The position numbers were made by a program, and so were the translations under genes. Below are positions 2,051 to 7,949 of a stretch of 8,093 bases of DNA, piece by piece. How positions within the stretch are numbered: position 1 is the stretch's first letter; every line of letters begins with the position of its first letter. This DNA comes from a virus (taxonomy: Duplodnaviria; Heunggongvirae; Uroviricota; Caudoviricetes): the IMG/VR virus record IMGVR_UViG_2630968500_000006; one strand, 5' to 3'. The notes under the pieces were generated by a model that saw only the letters and a program-made list of their open reading frames with translations, was not told the origin of the DNA and searched no databases.

Positions 2051-2185
2051 CCACTTATTTCAGGCTTATGTAATTGGCGGTGATTCTACAGCAACTTGGA
2101 TGCTTTAGCAGTTCGGACATTAGGCTACGAATGATCTGCCTAGAGGTTTGTTAAGCCGCAAAGTGCTGGTGCTTTATGCCTGTGA

Positions 2186-2226
2186 AGTTTATAATTGTGT
2201 ACACATAACGAGTACATGAGGTATTT
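2186..2226 (+). promoter_or_regulatory. phd-doc promoter/operator: -10 TATAAT (2190-2195), perfect 10-bp palindrome TGTGTACACA (2196-2205), second GTACA-containing site (about 2210-2218), ribosome-binding site GAGGT (2217-2221)
   Basis: The palindrome and hexamers are read directly from the sequence. The P1 phd-doc operon is known to be autoregulated by Phd/Doc binding palindromic operator sites that overlap its promoter. I did not find a convincing -35, so the promoter boundaries are approximate. Confidence 0.5.
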
Positions 2227-2448
2227 ATGCAATCCATTAACTTCCGTACCGCGCGCGGCAACCTTTCTGAAGTGCTCAACAATGTTGAGGCCGGGGAAGA
2301 GGTTGAAATCACCCGCAGAGGCCGTGAGCCAGCAGTAATTGTCAGCAAGGCTACTTTCGAAGCCTACAAAAAAGCGGCGCTGGATGCTGAATTTGCATCC
2401 CTGTTTGACACCCTGGACTCCACCAACAAGGAACTGGTTAACCGATAA
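2227..2448 (+). CDS. phd: Phd antitoxin (prevent-host-death), 73 aa
   Basis: The ORF product [73 protein letters not shown] matches my recollection of bacteriophage P1 Phd in sequence and length. Ribosome-binding site upstream. The stop TAA (2446-2448) overlaps the doc ATG (2448-2450). Confidence 0.95.
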
Positions 2449-2828
2449 TGAGGCATATATCACCGGAAGAACTTATTGCGCTTCATGATGCGAATATAAG
2501 CCGCTACGGCGGCCTGTCGGGAATGTCAGATCCGGGTAGGGCAGAGGCCATTATCGGGAGAGTTCAGGCCAGAGTTGCCTACGAAGAGATCACCGACCTT
2601 TTCGAAGTCTCCGCCACCTACCTGGTGGCTACGGCGAGAGGGCATATATTCAATGATGCCAATAAGCGTACCGCGCTAAACAGTGCGCTGCTATTTCTAC
2701 GCCGTAACGGGGTGCAGGTATTTGATTCACCTGAACTGGCAGACCTTACTGTAGGCGCTGCGACTGGCGAGATATCTGTATCTTCTGTCGCCGCCACGTT
2801 ACGTAGATTGTATGGTTCTGCGGAGTAG
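2448..2828 (+). CDS. doc: Doc toxin (death-on-curing), Fic-fold kinase, 126 aa
   Basis: 126-aa product with the Doc-type Fic motif HIFNDANKR (HxFx[D/N][A/G]NKR). Translationally coupled to phd. Size and sequence are as recalled for P1 Doc. Confidence 0.95.
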
Positions 2829-2832
2829 ATTA

Positions 2833-3012
2833 ATGGCACGCAAATACAACAAATTGTCCCGTGAAGCGTTAAAGATGCTTCTTGATGGCGTGAGTCGCCG
2901 CAAGGTAAAGCAATACCTGGTTAGTAAGCAAATTGGTGCCAGGACCGCTATTGCTGTGTTATGCCGTCAGGAAATGGTTGTGCTTAAACAGAGAATGCCG
3001 GGCAGCAGATAA
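2833..3012 (+). CDS. Hypothetical small basic protein (59 aa from ATG 2833; the track ORF starts at 2812 inside doc); positionally equivalent to a P1 post-doc gene (pdcA?), assigned by synteny only
   Basis: ORF in the track (2812..3012). The ATG at 2833 lies 5 nt after the doc stop and is preceded by GGAG (2822-2825), whereas the ATG at 2812 is inside doc with no Shine-Dalgarno. Product MARKYNKLSREALKMLLDGVSRRKVKQYLVSKQIGARTAIAVLCRQEMVVLKQRMPGSR is lysine/arginine-rich. No recognisable motif. Confidence 0.45.
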   Translation: MARKYNKLSREALKMLLDGVSRRKVKQYLVSKQIGARTAIAVLCRQEMVVLKQRMPGSR

Positions 3013-3039
3013 AGCCCAATCAGTGATGAAAGGTGTGAT

Positions 3040-4083
3040 GTGAAAGCCATTATTACTCCCTTTGTACAAAAAGAGCTTGGCGTCGCCACATTCAAAGTGG
3101 ATCAGGAAGTCAGAAAGCTGGTGGAGGCTGGCCGTAAATTTATTATGGAGCCGGTGCCGCGTGAGTTAATCGAGCACATGGACGACGGCCTCGTTGTTTC
3201 CGAGCAAACTATGGCAACAAATGAGGCGTTGCAGCCGTTTTTTAACAGCGATGAACTGTTTCGCCGTATTGGTGGAATTGACTCGCTGGTGGCGTGGTTG
3301 CGCAGGAAAGAGGGGCAATGCCAGGCCGCAGATCGTAGTTGGTGTGACAACCATATTGTCCACGCTGAACGAGACAATAGCGCGGTGTTGTTGTGCTGGC
3401 ATCACGATAACCATTACCGGATGCGTGGTTTTAATGAGCTGAAAGAAACGCTGCACAATAATCGCGTTAACTGGATACTGGATGTCGCCCGTCAGGAAAT
3501 GGGGCTTTCAGATGGCCATGATTTAAGTATTCAGGAACTGTGCTGGTGGGCTTTCATGTGCAACATGATGCACCTGATGCCGGAAGAAGTTTGCCGTATA
3601 TCAATAAATAAGATGAAAGCCGCAACGCAGGATAGCGGACCTCTGAAAGAGGCGGATATTCGCCCGTATGACGATCGCGCTACAGCATATGTTCAGATGA
3701 TGGAAGAACGCGCCGCGCCGATGCGTGCAAAAGTATGCCCTGTGGATGTTGACTCCGACCCTGGCATGGCGCATTTCAAAATACCAAAACTGCAATCGCT
3801 AAAATTACCTGAGTACATGGACTTTGTTGCTTCCCGTCCATGCTGTGGGTGCGGAGCGGCGGGAGCTGGCGCTCACATTACGCCTTATATCGTTCGTCAT
3901 AGTCGATTATGCGCGCATGACATTTACGCAATTCCTCTGTGCCAGTCATGCCAGCGTGATATTGAGCGTGACCGCGATAATTGGGAGAAGACGCACGGTA
4001 GGCTGGCGATGCATCAACGATTGTTCTTTGATTACGCGCTTGGAGTCGGCGTTATCACAAGTCATTCGTCGAGTGTTAGATAA
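3040..4083 (+). CDS. Hypothetical Cys/His-rich protein, 347 aa, GTG start; two HNH-like or zinc-ribbon-like motifs; positionally equivalent to a P1 post-doc gene (pdcB?), assigned by synteny only
   Basis: Long ORF with a GTG start preceded by AAAGGTG (3028-3034). It has 13 Cys and 16 His in 347 aa, clustered as [25 protein letters not shown] and PCCGCG...H...RH..LCAHD...PLCQSCQ. No overlapping ORF of comparable length on either strand. Confidence 0.75.
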
Positions 4084-4084
4084 A

Positions 4085-4126
4085 ATTGCTCTAATGTATT
4101 GCTATTTCTTTAGTTGAGGGTATTAT
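4085..4126 (+). promoter_or_regulatory. C1-repressor operator-like 17-mer (4085-4101, ATTGCTCTAATGTATTG) overlapping a sigma70-like promoter (-35 TTGCTA 4099-4104, 16-bp spacer, -10 TATTAT 4121-4126) upstream of lpa
   Basis: 14/17 match to the P1 C1 operator consensus ATTGCTCTAATAAATTT as I recall it. The operator overlaps the -35 of a well-spaced promoter. P1 lpa (gene 10) is known to be C1-controlled. Confidence 0.55.
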
Positions 4127-4171
4127 ATTCCACGTTGATTAGTTGACATGGGCTAATCAGTAGGTGACAGG

Positions 4172-4624
4172 ATGTTACTTAACTGGCAGGGACGCCACTT
4201 CATGGAAATAAATCACTCACGAATAACATCGTACGAGATTGCGGATTACATGATCCGCACTAAATCTCTTCTATCAGCGAAAGAACTCGCAGCAATTCTT
4301 GAAAAGGAATACCCGCATCTGGATGTCGATAAGCGCGATGTTTATCTGCGCTTAAAGGCTATCGCTGTGTCTAAGTATTCGTCTGTTTTGATTGATGACA
4401 GTACACGCCCACGTAGATTTCAGATCCACTCTCTGAATCCTGAATTCTTTCGCCGCAGCCGCGCTCCGCGCCGGTTTGATGAAAAACTCCAGAACGAACT
4501 CTATATGACGCAGGACGAAAAGGAACGCCGGGAGCACCAGCCTTGGGTAATGGCGCGTCAACTTTTCAATAAGGTGGTCCGTCAGCACCGTCATTACGGT
4601 AATGCCACATCCGCACGTATCTGA
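4172..4624 (+). CDS. lpa: Late promoter activator Lpa (P1 gene 10 product), 150 aa
   Basis: 150-aa ORF directly upstream of pacA and downstream of a C1-operator-controlled promoter, with a ribosome-binding site AGGTGA (4162-4167). The call rests on synteny with P1 (phd-doc ... lpa-pacA-pacB) and expected size. I do not reliably recall the Lpa sequence itself. The start could instead be ATG 4202 (MEINHSR...), though that has no Shine-Dalgarno. Confidence 0.7.
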   Translation: MLLNWQGRHFMEINHSRITSYEIADYMIRTKSLLSAKELAAILEKEYPHLDVDKRDVYLRLKAIAVSKYSSVLIDDSTRPRRFQIHSLNPEFFRRSRAPRRFDEKLQNELYMTQDEKERREHQPWVMARQLFNKVVRQHRHYGNATSARI

Positions 4625-4634
4625 TTGATTGCTT

Positions 4635-4652
4635 GCCCGTTCCGGGCCTTTT
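4635..4652 (+). terminator. Candidate intrinsic terminator after lpa: GCCCG-TTC-CGGGC hairpin followed by CTTTT
   Basis: 5-bp GC stem (4635-4639 / 4643-4647) with a 3-nt loop, followed by a T4 run (4649-4652), 11 nt after the lpa stop. Short stem and short T-tract, so it would be weak. Confidence 0.35.
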
Positions 4653-4710
4653 GACATGTGACTTTCGTTACCCTCGCGTCAAAAAGAGTTTTATACGAAA
4701 GGAAGCATAA

Positions 4711-5904
4711 GTGACCTGGGACGATCACAAGAAGAATTTTGCTCGCCTGGCGCGAGATGGTGGTTACACCATCGCACAATATGCCGCCGAGTTTAATCTC
4801 AACCCAAACACCGCACGTCGTTATCTCCGTGCATTCAAAGAAGACACCGGAACAGCGGATAGCCGTAAGCCAAATAAGCCTGTCAGGAAACCACTAAAAA
4901 GCATGATCATTGATCACGCTAATGATCAACGTGCAGGTGATCACATTGTGGCTGAAACGGCTGAAAAACAAAGAGTTAATGCTGTTGTCAGTGCCGCAGT
5001 CGAGAACGCTAAGCGCCAAAATAAGCGCATAAATGATCGTTCTGATGATCATGACGTGATCACCCGCGCCCACCGTACCTTACGTGATCGCCTGGAACGC
5101 GACACCCTGGATGATGATGGTGAACGCTTTGAATTCGAAGCTGGCGATTACCTGATAGATAACGTTGAAGCGTGGAAGGCCGCGCGCGCTATGTTGCGTC
5201 GTTCCGGAGCTGATGTTCTGGAAACCACTCTTCTGGAAAAGTCTCTTTCTCATCTCCTTATGCTGGAGAACGCCCGGGATACGTGTATTCGCCTGGTGCA
5301 GGAAATGCGCGATCAGCAAAAAGACGATGATGAAGGTACTCCGCCTGAATACCGTATCGCGAGCATGCTAAACAGCTGTTCCGCGCAGATAAGCAGCCTG
5401 ATCAACACCATTTACAGCATCCGGAATAACTATCGAAAAGAAAGCCGGGAGGCGGAAAAGCACGCTTTGTCTATGGGGCAAGCTGGCATTGTTAAGCTGG
5501 CATACGAACGAAAGCGTGAAAATAACTGGTCAGTGCTGGAAGCAGCTGAATTCATCGAGGCGCATGGCGGGAAAGTGCCGCCCCTGATGCTGGAGCAAAT
5601 CAAAGCCGATCTGCGTGCTCCTAAGACCAATACCGATGATGAGGAAAGGCAAACAGCCGTCGGTGGCCCTTCTCTTGAAGATCTGGACAAAGTTGCGCGA
5701 GAACGGGCCGCCAACCGCCGCGCCGATGCCGCATTGTGGATTGAGCAGCGTAGGGAAGAAATCGCCGATATCGTTGATACAGGCGGTTATGGGGATGTTG
5801 ATACTGAAGGTGTATCAAACGACCCATGGCTGGAACAAGACCTGGACGAAGACGAGGAGGAAGACGAAGAAGTCACCCGCAAGCTATACGGGGATGATGA
5901 TTAA
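4711..5904 (+). CDS. pacA: PacA, terminase small subunit (pac-recognition subunit), 397 aa, GTG start
   Basis: 397-aa ORF with ribosome-binding site AGGAAG (4700-4705). Contains the hexamer array characteristic of the P1 pac site in its 5' region. N-terminal helix-turn-helix-like segment and acidic C-terminal tail. The stop TAA (5902-5904) overlaps the pacB ATG. Confidence 0.93.
4904..5062 (+). other. pac packaging (cleavage) site: seven TGATC(A/G) hexamers, four left and three right of a central region, each containing a Dam GATC
   Basis: Hexamers read directly from the sequence: TGATCA at 4904-4909, 4911-4916, 4923-4928, 4938-4943; TGATCG at 5034-5039; TGATCA at 5046-5051 and 5057-5062. 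The 4 + 3 arrangement over about 160 bp inside pacA is the known architecture of the P1 pac site. Confidence 0.85.
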
Positions 5905-7418
5905 TGGCCAGAAGTTGCGTAACGGATCCACGTTGGCGCGAGCTGGTGGCGCTATATCGTTATGACTGGATTGCGGCCGCTGATGTTTTGTTCGGCAAAA
6001 CACCTACCTGGCAGCAGGATCTGATTATTGAGTCTGTGCAGGAACAGGGTAGCAAGACATCTGTTTCGTCTGGTCACGGTACCGGGAAATCAGACATGAC
6101 TTCTATCATGATCATGTTGTTCATAATCATGTATCCCGGTGCCCGCGCCATTATCGTTGCGAACAAAATTCAGCAGGTAATGACCGGTATATTCAAGTAC
6201 ATCAAGATAAACTGGGCTACTGCCACCAGCCGTTTTCCATGGCTTGCTGATTATTTTGTTCTGACAGAAACCGCTTTCTATGAGGTTACTGGTAAAGGTG
6301 TATGGACTGTAGTACCGAAGGGCTTTCGTCTGGGAAGTGAAGAAGCTCTCGCCGGTGAACACGCAGATCATCTTCTGTATATTATCGATGAAGCCTCCGG
6401 TGTCAGTGATAGAGCTTTCGGTATCATCACCGGTGCTCTTACCGGACAGGATAACCGCATCTTATTACTGTCACAGCCTACACGCCCAAGCGGCTATTTC
6501 TACGATACTCACCATAAACTGGCCAAGCGTCCTGGTAACCCAGATGGCGTTTATACGGCGATCACGCTTAACAGTGAGGAATCACCGCTGGTAACGCCAG
6601 AATTTATCAAAATGAAGCTGGCGGAGTACGGCGGGCGTGATAACCCTATGTACATGATTAAGGTGCGCGGCCTATTCCCTAAATCACAGGACGGCTTCCT
6701 TCTTGGACGTGATGAGGTTGAACGTGCAACGCGGCGGAAAGTTAAGATTGCCAAAGGATGGGGCTGGCTTGCATGTGTGGACGTTGCTGGTGGTACGGGA
6801 CGGGATAAGTCAGTTATCAATATCATGATGGTGTCCGGCCAGCGAAATAAACGCCGTGTAATCAACTATCGAATGCTGGAATACACAGACGTTACAGAAA
6901 CGCAGCTTGCCGCCAAAATTTTCGCAGAATGTAATCCTGAGCGATTCCCCAATATCACCATAGCGATAGATGGAGATGGCCTGGGTAAAGCAACAGCGGA
7001 TCTGATGTACGAGTATTATGGTATTACCGTACAGCGTATACGCTGGGGTAAAAAGATGCATAGCCGTGAAGATAAGAGCCTGTACTTTGATAAACGTGCT
7101 TATGCCAACGTTCAAGCCGCAGAGGCCGTAAAATCTGGTCGTATGAGACTGGATAAGGGTAATGAAACTATTGAGGAAGCGTCGAAAATCCCTGTAGGGA
7201 TTAACTCCGCAGGTCAATGGAAGGTGATGAGTAAGGAGGATATGAAGAAAAAACTCAACCTGCACTCACCAGACCATTGGGATACATATTGTTTCGCTAT
7301 GCTGGCGGATTATGTTCCCCAGGATGAAGTGCTTAGCGTCGAAGACGAAGCGCAGGTTGATGAGGCTCTGGCATGGCTTAATGAATTAATATTTGCTCTA
7401 ATAAATTGTGTTTTTTAA
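5904..7418 (+). CDS. pacB: PacB, terminase large subunit (ATPase/nuclease), 504 aa
   Basis: 504-aa ORF translationally coupled to pacA. P-loop/Walker A-like SGHGTGKS and Walker B-like [10 protein letters not shown]. Position and size as in P1. Confidence 0.93.
7392..7408. promoter_or_regulatory. C1-repressor operator-like 17-mer TTTGCTCTAATAAATTG overlapping the last codons of pacB
   Basis: 15/17 match to ATTGCTCTAATAAATTT. It shares the 10-mer TTGCTCTAAT with the lpa operator at 4085-4101. Two occurrences of such a 10-mer in 8 kb are very unlikely by chance. Confidence 0.45.
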
Positions 7419-7533
7419 CTACCGATGTTACATTGAGCCTGACCTCTTGCGCCTTGAGGCATTTTCGGTTTATGCTTATCAGGCACCTCATTAAAACGGG
7501 TGCCGGGATTGGCCTCCCGCTTAAGTCTAAGGC

Positions 7534-7567
7534 GATACAGACGCCGCTCGCGTCTTTTTTTTGTATC
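7534..7567 (+). terminator. Candidate rho-independent terminator downstream of pacB: GACGC-CGCTC-GCGTC hairpin followed by T8, nested within an outer GATACA/TGTATC inverted repeat
   Basis: Inner stem 7540-7544 / 7550-7554, then eight T (7555-7562). Outer arms GATACA 7534-7539 and TGTATC 7562-7567. On the minus strand the run is A-rich before the hairpin, so it is oriented for plus-strand termination. Confidence 0.5.
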
Positions 7568-7727
7568 GGCGTACACGCACACCTCTACAATGGTGGGCTG
7601 TATGGGGCTACCTTCGGGTAGGCTGGTTACCTTGGACGCCAGTAAGGCCAACTCCGTACAGTCCACCGCCAGCAAGATTGGTCTCTTCTGCGGTGGTTAC
7701 ATACCAACGTCTAAGGAGGCTGCCAAT

Positions 7728-7949
7728 ATGGCTACTATCCCTACCCCAACTCATCCTGAATTTATCTGGCGCTTTTACTCCTGCCAAAAACGTCACTATC
7801 ACTTCGTTATTGCACCAACAGAAGATGAGGCCCGCTCTCAGCTTCCTGACGCCCCATGTATTTTCTCTGCCCGTTTTTCCACTGATTCACGCAATTCTCT
7901 CAGTTACTGGTGCCTCCCTGTTAACGCTTCTGCTCAGGAGGGACTATGA
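7728..7949 (+). CDS. Hypothetical small protein, 73 aa
   Basis: ATG at 7728 preceded by a consensus Shine-Dalgarno AAGGAGG (7713-7719) with 8-nt spacing. It is the 3' part of the 149-aa track ORF 7500..7949, whose upstream portion spans the terminator and lacks a ribosome-binding site. Product MATIPTPTHPEFIWRFYSCQKRHYHFVIAPTEDEARSQLPDAPCIFSARF... has no motif I recognise. Confidence 0.4.
   Translation: MATIPTPTHPEFIWRFYSCQKRHYHFVIAPTEDEARSQLPDAPCIFSARFSTDSRNSLSYWCLPVNASAQEGL

Follow-up and report, generated by a model that had tools for sequence, protein, structure and literature searches.

The pdcB gene of P1-like phage-plasmids encodes a DUF968 protein with a predicted zinc finger of the HNH fold that lacks the canonical catalytic histidines

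The pdcB locus and the DUF968 family

The DNA analyzed here is an 8,093-nucleotide stretch from a virus of the Caudoviricetes (IMG/VR record IMGVR_UViG_2630968500_000006), which we call the window. The whole window is 100% identical to the Escherichia coli plasmid NZ_CP060066.1 and is collinear with phage P1 over positions ~2150-7386; it is a piece of a P1-like phage-plasmid. Its genes include hsdM of a type I restriction-modification (R-M) system, the addiction genes phd and doc, the small open reading frame (ORF) pdcA, a 347-residue ORF at 3040-4083, the late promoter activator gene lpa, and pacA and pacB. By its sequence the 347-residue ORF is pdcB ("post-doc") of P1-like phage-plasmids. 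An earlier note on this DNA, made from the sequence alone, had left the gene without an assignment; it is in fact a catalogued gene of a catalogued family, and its recovery here is a re-discovery rather than the description of a new system. What is new is more modest. PdcB appears to have kept the zinc scaffold of an HNH-type finger, and the label "HNH endonuclease", which RefSeq attaches to pdcB, is probably wrong or at least misleading for the P1 branch of the family, in which the fold is present and the catalytic histidines are absent.

The ORF lies on the + strand, begins with GTG and ends with a TAA stop codon at 4081-4083. The nearest in-frame stop codon upstream is at 3010, and a Shine-Dalgarno-like AAGG(T)G (AAGGTG) can be read from the sequence at 3030-3035 on the same strand. 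Because the N-terminus MKA[IV]ITPF of the product is conserved among homologues, the GTG at 3040 is judged to be the correct start. The length and composition given in the earlier note are exact, with 13 Cys and 16 His in 347 residues; together these make up 8.4% of the protein, compared with 0-4.7% in seven other genes of the window, and the binomial probabilities are 3e-7 for Cys and 3e-3 for His. The motifs that it listed are likewise present (CWHHDNH at residues 119-125, CC-x-C as CCGC at 268-271, CAH at 291-293, and C-x2-C as CQSC at 301-304), except that the first cluster reads C102-x2-H105-x2-H108 and not C-x3-H-x2-H. Rfam and repeat scans detected no RNA family and no meaningful repeat inside or beside the gene.

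At the nucleotide level pdcB is 98% identical to the genes of P1, P7 and RCS47. It is the same gene as that of P1 PdcB (P1_gp107, YP_006573) and of the alleles in P7, RCS47, SJ46 and JL22, with amino acid identities of 96.5% to P1 and up to 98.8% to the alleles; the differences are allelic substitutions only, and the surrounding order phd-doc-pdcA-pdcB-Olpa-lpa-pacAB is shared. PdcB matches Pfam DUF968 (PF06147) over residues 161-337 (168.5 bits against a cut-off of 27.8, E 1.8e-49) and PHROG 96, a family carrying the name 'HNH endonuclease', over essentially its full length (residues 1-340, E 8e-128). It also aligns by BLASTP with YdfU of the K-12 prophage Qin over residues 1-339 (26% identity, E 7e-44), an alignment already noted in the P1 record. 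When 1.8 billion representative proteins were searched with a profile, 745 relatives were found, some 40 of which are full length. Of these, 37 full-length homologues were aligned and also underlie the structural model described below, while 168 family members were aligned to the family profile, about 100 of which cover each domain (101 for the N-terminal module and 99 for the C-terminal domain). An NCBIfam scan and sequence searches of the PDB, with the single sequence and with two profiles, gave nothing useful. Database entries in which the N-terminal domain is fused to tail-tip, portal, capsid or Q domains were set aside as chimeric or decayed prophage assemblies that are functionally uninformative.

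Two published classifications bear on the family. Jablonska et al. 2017, in their survey of the His-Me finger superfamily (PMC5714182), united DUF968 with DUF1364/YbcO as group 7, and in the account of Curtis et al. 2014 (PMC4118853) DUF968 is a fusion of a DNA-binding domain with a zinc-finger HNH motif. The latter description, an Orf/NinB-HNH fusion, does not fit PdcB, for which no NinB/Orf-like domain N-terminal to the finger was matched by Pfam, profile comparison or a Foldseek search of BFVD.

Zinc modules and catalytic residues of PdcB

An AlphaFold2 model of PdcB, with a mean predicted local distance difference test score (pLDDT) of 84, divides the protein into three parts: (a) an N-terminal domain (residues 1-158; 3040-3513, + strand), (b) a middle helical domain (residues 159-255; 3514-3804, +) and (c) a C-terminal finger (residues 256-340; 3805-4059, +). 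Part (a) is modelled as a small beta/alpha portion of short strands and helices, a zinc-knuckle beta-beta-alpha module (a hairpin of strands 106-111 and 114-119 and a helix at 120-129) and a long helix at 132-154; modelled alone, it reaches a pLDDT of 90.6. Part (b) corresponds to the first half of the Pfam DUF968 model, the match beginning at residue 161, and is predicted to be helical with two low-confidence loops; its conserved columns are LSxxELCWWA, KExDI and P249-K250. In part (c) the modelled strands 280-284 and 297-301 and the helix 302-310, followed by two further helices, would form at 280-310 the beta-beta-alpha core of the His-Me finger superfamily.

Profile comparison agrees with this view of part (c). 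With hhalign, the C-terminal domain is similar to Gp16 of the Staphylococcus phage PhiNM1 (probability 94%, E 1e-7), to P1 Ref (80%) and to YbcO (66%), and Gp16 itself scores over the DUF968 cut-off. Part (c) is therefore best described as a putative Cys4-zinc His-Me (HNH-fold) finger, with C268, C271, C301 and C304 as its ligands. The predicted structural zinc site, CxxC...CxxC/H, appears to be retained in the family: among the 99 homologues C268 is found in 97, C271 in 82 and C301 in 85, and position 304 is Cys in 46 and His in 35.

The residues expected to carry out catalysis are a different matter. In 79 canonical sequences the finger reads C-x2-C-G...D-[PA]-H-H...K-A-H-D...P-L-C-x2-[CH]-H-x3-H, whereas in PdcB it reads C-x2-C-G...T-P-Y-I...C-A-H-D...P-L-C-x2-C-Q-x3-E. 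Histidine occupies the positions aligned with 283, 305 and 309 in 79 of the 99 homologues (79 and 78 of 99 for the helix positions 305 and 309 taken separately), and four independent alignments place the HH dyad of YdfU, Ref and Gp16 on Y283-I284. PdcB thus has Y283 where the general-base histidine at the end of beta1 (the first H of HNH) would stand, equivalent to H157 of Gp16 and H112 of Ref. On the helix, where CxxC-H-x3-H would supply a metal-binding His or Asn, it has Q305 (H185 in Gp16, H134 in Ref) and E309 (H189 in Gp16, about H136 in Ref). All 19 sequences of the P1, D6 and P0020 types share the change, with Tyr or Phe at 283, Gln, Tyr or Ala at 305 and Glu, Ala, Ser or Arg at 309; one unrelated homologue shows a separate loss of the catalytic histidines. 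Nor does the phage-plasmid clade have a conserved His anywhere within several residues of 283. The resemblance to HNH nucleases that the earlier note proposed therefore stands for the Cys ligands, conserved in about 100 homologues, but not for the catalytic histidines. The motif histidines H105, H108, H279 and H287 are not conserved, and the last two, present in this allele, vary even within the clade.

The loss does not appear to be part of a general decay of the gene. In a neighbour-joining tree built from residues 1-255, with the finger excluded, all phage-plasmid sequences that have lost the histidines form one clade nested among HH-bearing sequences, which indicates that the loss in phage-plasmids was a single event. 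The ratio of nonsynonymous to synonymous substitution rates (dN/dS) for the whole of pdcB is 0.13 in comparison with P1 and 0.09 in comparison with Cronobacter phage JK004 (66% amino acid identity), and the finger is the most constrained part of the gene (0.07-0.09). The replacement residues are themselves conserved in the clade (Tyr or Phe at 283 in 19/20, Gln at 305 in 17/20), and all four zinc ligands and H293-D294 are kept. By these measures pdcB is not decaying, and both the C-terminal domain and the whole protein remain under purifying selection.

These same observations can be used to argue that PdcB is still an active HNH/His-Me endonuclease, a structure-specific or RecA-stimulated nickase comparable to Ref or Gp16 that employs non-canonical residues of the finger. 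The fold and the homology match HNH nickases, and the name of PHROG 96 points the same way; PdcB retains the zinc ligands, H293-D294 and an acidic side chain at 309, its C-terminal domain is under strong purifying selection, and the H157A variant of Gp16 keeps its effect in vivo (PMC12817073). We nonetheless consider this alternative possible but unlikely, because the general base and both helix histidines, invariant in the 79 canonical relatives, are replaced across the clade and there is no conserved His near 283. To our knowledge, every characterized His-Me nuclease relies on a His at the end of beta1. In addition, PdcB gave no hit at E <= 1 to RecA_dep_nuc (PF16786) or HNHc_6 (PF16784), to which its finger shows no more than remote homology, and none to Pfam HNH. 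The HNHc_6 model does hit 16 of 37 PdcB relatives, and YdfU falls below the thresholds, with 26.4 bits against the 26.6 needed for HNHc_6 and an E-value of 0.004 for RecA_dep_nuc.

Comparison with better-known proteins places PdcB more precisely. YdfU of Qin and its lambdoid homologues are collinear with PdcB over the full length, with the same three domains, the same N-terminal knuckle and the same Cys4 finger, but they keep D-x-H-H...C-x2-[CH]-H-x3-H. YbcO of DLP12 (DUF1364, PDB 3G27) is a single domain of 96 residues that also keeps the histidines (in LAHIR and CSACH), whereas PdcB has two further domains and lacks those histidines. The two nearest characterized relatives of the finger, Ref and Gp16, are both RecA-linked nickases (PMC4330346, PMC12817073). 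Ref, the RecA-dependent HNH endonuclease of P1 (RecA_dep_nuc, PDB 3PLW), has H112-H113, H134/H136 and an N-terminus, basic and disordered, through which it is targeted to RecA filaments (PMC4330346); PdcB lacks these histidines and such an N-terminus as well as a RecA_dep_nuc match. Gp16, a RecA-interacting nickase with an HNHc_6 domain (NAR 2026, PMC12817073), shares with PdcB a homologous HNH zinc finger and an origin in the early region of a temperate phage. It differs in having a NinB-like N-terminal domain and catalytic H157, H185 and H189, in place of the other N-terminal and middle domains of PdcB, which give no NinB signal, and of Y283, Q305 and E309.

The N-terminal Cys/His cluster (residues 94-125; 3319-3414, +) reads C94-Q95-x6-C102...C119-W-H-H122-D123-N124 and is a predicted zinc knuckle conserved across the whole family. 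In the 101 homologues that cover it, C94 is found in 98, Q95 in 88, C119 in all 101, W120 in 91, D123 in 90 and N124 in 79. Position 102 is Cys in 49 and His in 45, and position 122 is His in 62 and Cys in 39; the interchange of Cys and His at these two positions points to a four-ligand zinc site with the signature C-x7-[CH]...C-x2-[HC]. The earlier note had seen two HNH-like motifs in the protein, which is half right. The C-terminal one is a finger of the HNH fold, but the N-terminal cluster has no match by profile or Foldseek. A Foldseek search of the N-terminal domain against BFVD gave no significant match, profile comparisons of the module with the C-terminal domain, YbcO, Ref and Gp16 gave probabilities below 7%, and comparison with a profile of stand-alone fingers of about 100 residues plus YbcO gave 0.1%. 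An internal duplication relating the N- and C-terminal modules was considered and rejected (hhalign probability 0.4%). The module resembles HNH folds weakly and is possibly a very divergent His-Me-like module.

It is conceivable that this module, with C-W-H-[HC]-D-N together with Q95 and N141, is the true functional center of the YdfU/PdcB family, either as a second, divergent His-Me-like site or as a site for a ligand or partner. Such a role would explain why PdcB survived the loss of its C-terminal active site. The module is the most conserved stretch of the family, it combines a beta-beta-alpha topology with a zinc-ligand pattern, and D123 would take the position after the second knuckle at which HNH fingers carry a metal ligand. 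Set against this are the negative structural and profile comparisons and the absence of any conserved residue at the end of its beta1, where position 108 is Thr, Ile, His, Tyr or Val. On balance we regard the proposal as improbable.

Genomic context of pdcB

The order pdcB-lpa-pacA-pacB-c1 is conserved in P1-like elements. The adjacency of pdcB and lpa is kept in relatives whose PdcB is 64-70% identical and on a contig where identity has dropped to 37%; in D6 the gene adjoins the phosphatase gene ppp. The homologue of lambdoid phages is found where the nin-type early region ends, typically in the order rusA-(KilA-N-like)-ydfU-Q, which is present whole or in part in SfV, Stx2a_WGPS2, mEp390, YeP2, Vibrio Pm34, Klebsiella P7641 and Qin; ydfU is adjacent to Q in seven of the eight lambdoid loci inspected. 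Both YdfU and PdcB are thus encoded at the end of an early operon, the former beside rusA and Q and the latter beside lpa, and in both lineages the gene immediately precedes the activator of the late genes, which is a modest new point. Rap/NinG and Orf/NinB of lambda occupy a comparable genomic niche in lambdoid phages, and Rap is likewise classed as a His-Me finger protein (PMC5714182).

Several features of the lambdoid loci are recorded here as observations in their own right. In five of six loci (YeP2, SfV, Stx2a_WGPS2, Providencia PSTCR8lys and Vibrio Pm34; mEp390 has rusA there) the gene immediately before the YdfU homologue is one of about 270 codons, annotated as a KilA-N domain protein, a transcriptional regulator or a hypothetical protein; in three of the five it overlaps the start of the YdfU homologue. 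Such a placement suggests that the two genes form a conserved pair. Two phage records give the YdfU homologue the wrong label 'antitermination protein Q'.

Given its fixed position, PdcB might act at the early-to-late switch or in packaging, aiding or timing Lpa (or Q) or the PacAB pacase in the manner of the terminase-associated HNH proteins of HK97-like phages. The gene stands directly upstream of the late activator in both lineages, pacAB follow lpa, and there is no terminator between pdcB and the lpa control region. Yet a knock-down of pdcB by CRISPR interference gave an efficiency of plating of 0.68, in contrast to the essential genes lpa, pacA and pacB (PMC10695390), D6 has its copy at another place, and in the lambdoid loci inspected the terminase genes are beyond the lysis genes that follow Q. 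The adjacency may be merely an inherited position at the end of an early operon, and we think a role of this kind quite improbable. The knock-down agrees with the finding that P1 pdcB::kan is viable and forms stable lysogens (PMC10067587, PMC10999674); according to these published data pdcB is dispensable for both lytic growth and lysogeny in the laboratory.

On its other side, pdcB is preceded by phd-doc and by R-M genes, from which the earlier note had placed it in a hotspot for defence or anti-defence genes. The possibility to be weighed is that PdcB is an effector of defence or anti-defence, or that it belongs to the phd-doc addiction module as a third component. It is suggested by the probable co-transcription of pdcB with phd-doc near a type I R-M gene, and by the presence of relBE-hokD upstream of ydfU in Qin. 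PADLOC (PADLOC-DB), however, returned no match for PdcB or PdcA at E <= 1, and pdcB belongs to the conserved core of these elements, being one of 21 extremely conserved genes of P1-like plasmids; the list includes phd, doc, pdcB and pacA, and the variable block lies upstream of phd (PMC9603915). It is this variable block, hot-lxr-humD in P1, that the type I R-M gene has replaced here, and R-M genes are absent from P1. The linkage to phd-doc expected of a third addiction component is not conserved either. There is no phd-doc upstream of pdcB in JK004, in P1-like elements of Klebsiella and Salmonella or in D6 (upstream of the gene in the first three, with PdcB 64-70% identical, lie DUF6884 and unrelated small ORFs), and a note in the P1 record indicates that the EcoDXXI plasmid has phd-doc without pdcB, the homology stopping at the doc stop codon. 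The stability of pdcB::kan lysogens also argues against such a function. The conserved neighbors of pdcB are thus lpa-pacAB and not phd-doc or the R-M genes, the hotspot proposal finds no support, and a defence or addiction role is very unlikely, the least probable of the alternatives considered.

The Qin locus (NC_000913.3 1642489-1645872) has the order relB-relE-hokD-rem-ydfU-ydfT(Q), which parallels phd-doc-pdcA-pdcB-lpa of P1 in presenting a toxin-antitoxin (TA) module, a small ORF, a YdfU/PdcB homologue and a late activator. Because other homologues have no TA module, the parallel may mean only that TA insertions are tolerated at the end of an early operon.

The remaining features of the window can be described in order. 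The hsdM gene (488-2050, - strand) sits directly upstream of phd. In NZ_CP060066.1 the adjacent hsdS is broken by ISKpn26, and the R-M system may therefore be inactive. According to the P1 record, phd-doc is 98% identical to sequence beside the EcoDXXI hsd locus of a conjugative plasmid; with hsdM next to phd-doc here, a linkage of phd-doc with hsd genes recurs. The antitoxin gene phd (2227-2448, +; Pfam PhdYeFM_antitox) and the toxin gene doc (2448-2828, +; Pfam Fic/DOC) form the upstream part (2227-2828) of a presumed transcription unit, whose promoter Pphd is annotated in P1. Downstream of doc, pdcA ends at 3012 (+ strand) and has an uncertain start, at 2812 in the P1 record (66 residues, overlapping doc) or at the ATG at 2833 according to PGAP (59 residues); PHROG 3345 matches it at residues 8-66 only. 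The possibility that pdcA is a conserved partner of pdcB was rejected, since other P1-like elements do not conserve pdcA ahead of pdcB and have at that position small ORFs that are not convincingly homologous. No terminator-like site was found between doc and pdcB. The only + strand match (2672-2687) falls within doc, and the number of matches is at chance level. The earlier note was thus right about the co-orientation of pdcB with phd-doc and about the missing terminator, but it overlooked pdcA between them.

Its suggestion of a repressor-controlled promoter downstream of pdcB is also confirmed, the promoter being that of lpa in P1. The C1 operator Olpa (4085-4101, +), located by an operator pattern search that gave two matches in the window against 0.03 expected, begins one base past the pdcB stop codon, and a promoter scan places the sigma-70-like promoter Plpa at 4099-4126 (+; -35 at 4099-4104, -10 at 4121-4126); the layout is as annotated in P1. 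The gap between pdcB and lpa (4083-4172) has no terminator. Should transcription from Pphd extend through pdcB in lysogens, C1 on its operator Olpa may, speculatively, also need to block read-through into lpa.

The genes lpa (4172-4624, +; Pfam BPP1_LPA, E 2e-57), pacA (4711-5904, +) and pacB (5904-7418, +) follow. Homology to P1 ends at 7386, about 30 nucleotides before the pacB stop codon, with the consequence that pacB here encodes 504 residues rather than 494. A C1-operator-like site at 7392-7408 is placed exactly at this breakpoint. Beyond pacB an immI-like module replaces c1; it comprises an isrK-like RNA (7483-7560), a C4 antisense RNA (7586-7673; Rfam, 75.9 bits) and an Icd-like ORF (~7728-7949). 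In NZ_CP060066.1 the sequence continues with ISSen4 and a KilAC antirepressor gene, and only then c1.

A possible role for PdcB

We suggest, with a probability of roughly 0.55, that PdcB is a zinc-dependent accessory factor that binds nucleic acid and would no longer cut by the classical HNH mechanism. In the scenario that we favor, canonical YdfU proteins would be structure-specific or RecA-linked nickases of a nin-type recombination or replication module. In the phage-plasmid branch the catalytic histidines were replaced once, by Tyr or Phe followed by Ile, by Gln and by Glu or Ala, with the zinc scaffold kept. PdcB would still bind a nucleic-acid or protein target through its zinc modules without HNH cutting, the target probably being branched or recombination-intermediate DNA. 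Pphd would drive a low level of pdcB expression, the gene coming last in a phd-doc-pdcA-pdcB transcript.

There are several points that weigh against this proposal. The absence of the canonical histidines does not prove inactivity: the conserved H293-D294, E309 and Y283 could form an unusual site, and E309 could in principle act as a metal ligand. Gp16 stayed toxic with the H157A substitution, at the position of Y283; H185A and H189A brought only partial relief, and mutations of the zinc finger abolished the toxicity (PMC12817073); in view of this behavior, some residual or non-canonical activity of PdcB has to be allowed for. PdcB is also slightly acidic, with a net charge of -6. (The net charge of the domain was examined as a proxy for a loss of DNA binding and discarded, the charge of the C-terminal domain showing no difference between members with and without the histidines.) The case for DNA binding by PdcB comes from the fold only, that for zinc binding from the conservation of the ligands, and that for transcription from Pphd from a scan that found neither a promoter nor a terminator signal. 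Finally, we found no functional study of pdcB or ydfU in the literature.

A more specific version of our proposal, which we offer tentatively and consider distinctly unlikely as it stands, is that PdcB-type proteins are pseudo-nucleases of HNH origin which lost catalysis once in the phage-plasmid lineage and were kept because they bind branched or RecA-coated DNA without cleaving it. In this role they might restrain or steer RecA-linked nicking, such as that by P1 Ref, or protect the replication intermediates of the plasmid prophage, with the N-terminal module as a new functional domain. If this were true, a new function of that module would explain why the gene is always positioned just before Q or lpa.

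An implication of these results is that a DUF968 protein in which the catalytic set was lost once, and which was retained all the same, should probably not be annotated as an HNH endonuclease. To this may be added two further modest points, the fixed position of the family before a late activator and the strongly conserved second zinc module of YdfU and PdcB. The gene deserves attention as one of a small number that essentially every P1-like phage-plasmid has conserved, and these elements are important as carriers of resistance genes. It also ties these elements to the large YdfU/DUF968 family of Stx and other lambdoid prophages, whose closest characterized relatives are RecA-linked nickases. 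The contrast between YdfU, with its histidines, and PdcB, without them, could help to assign a function to this widespread "y-gene" family.

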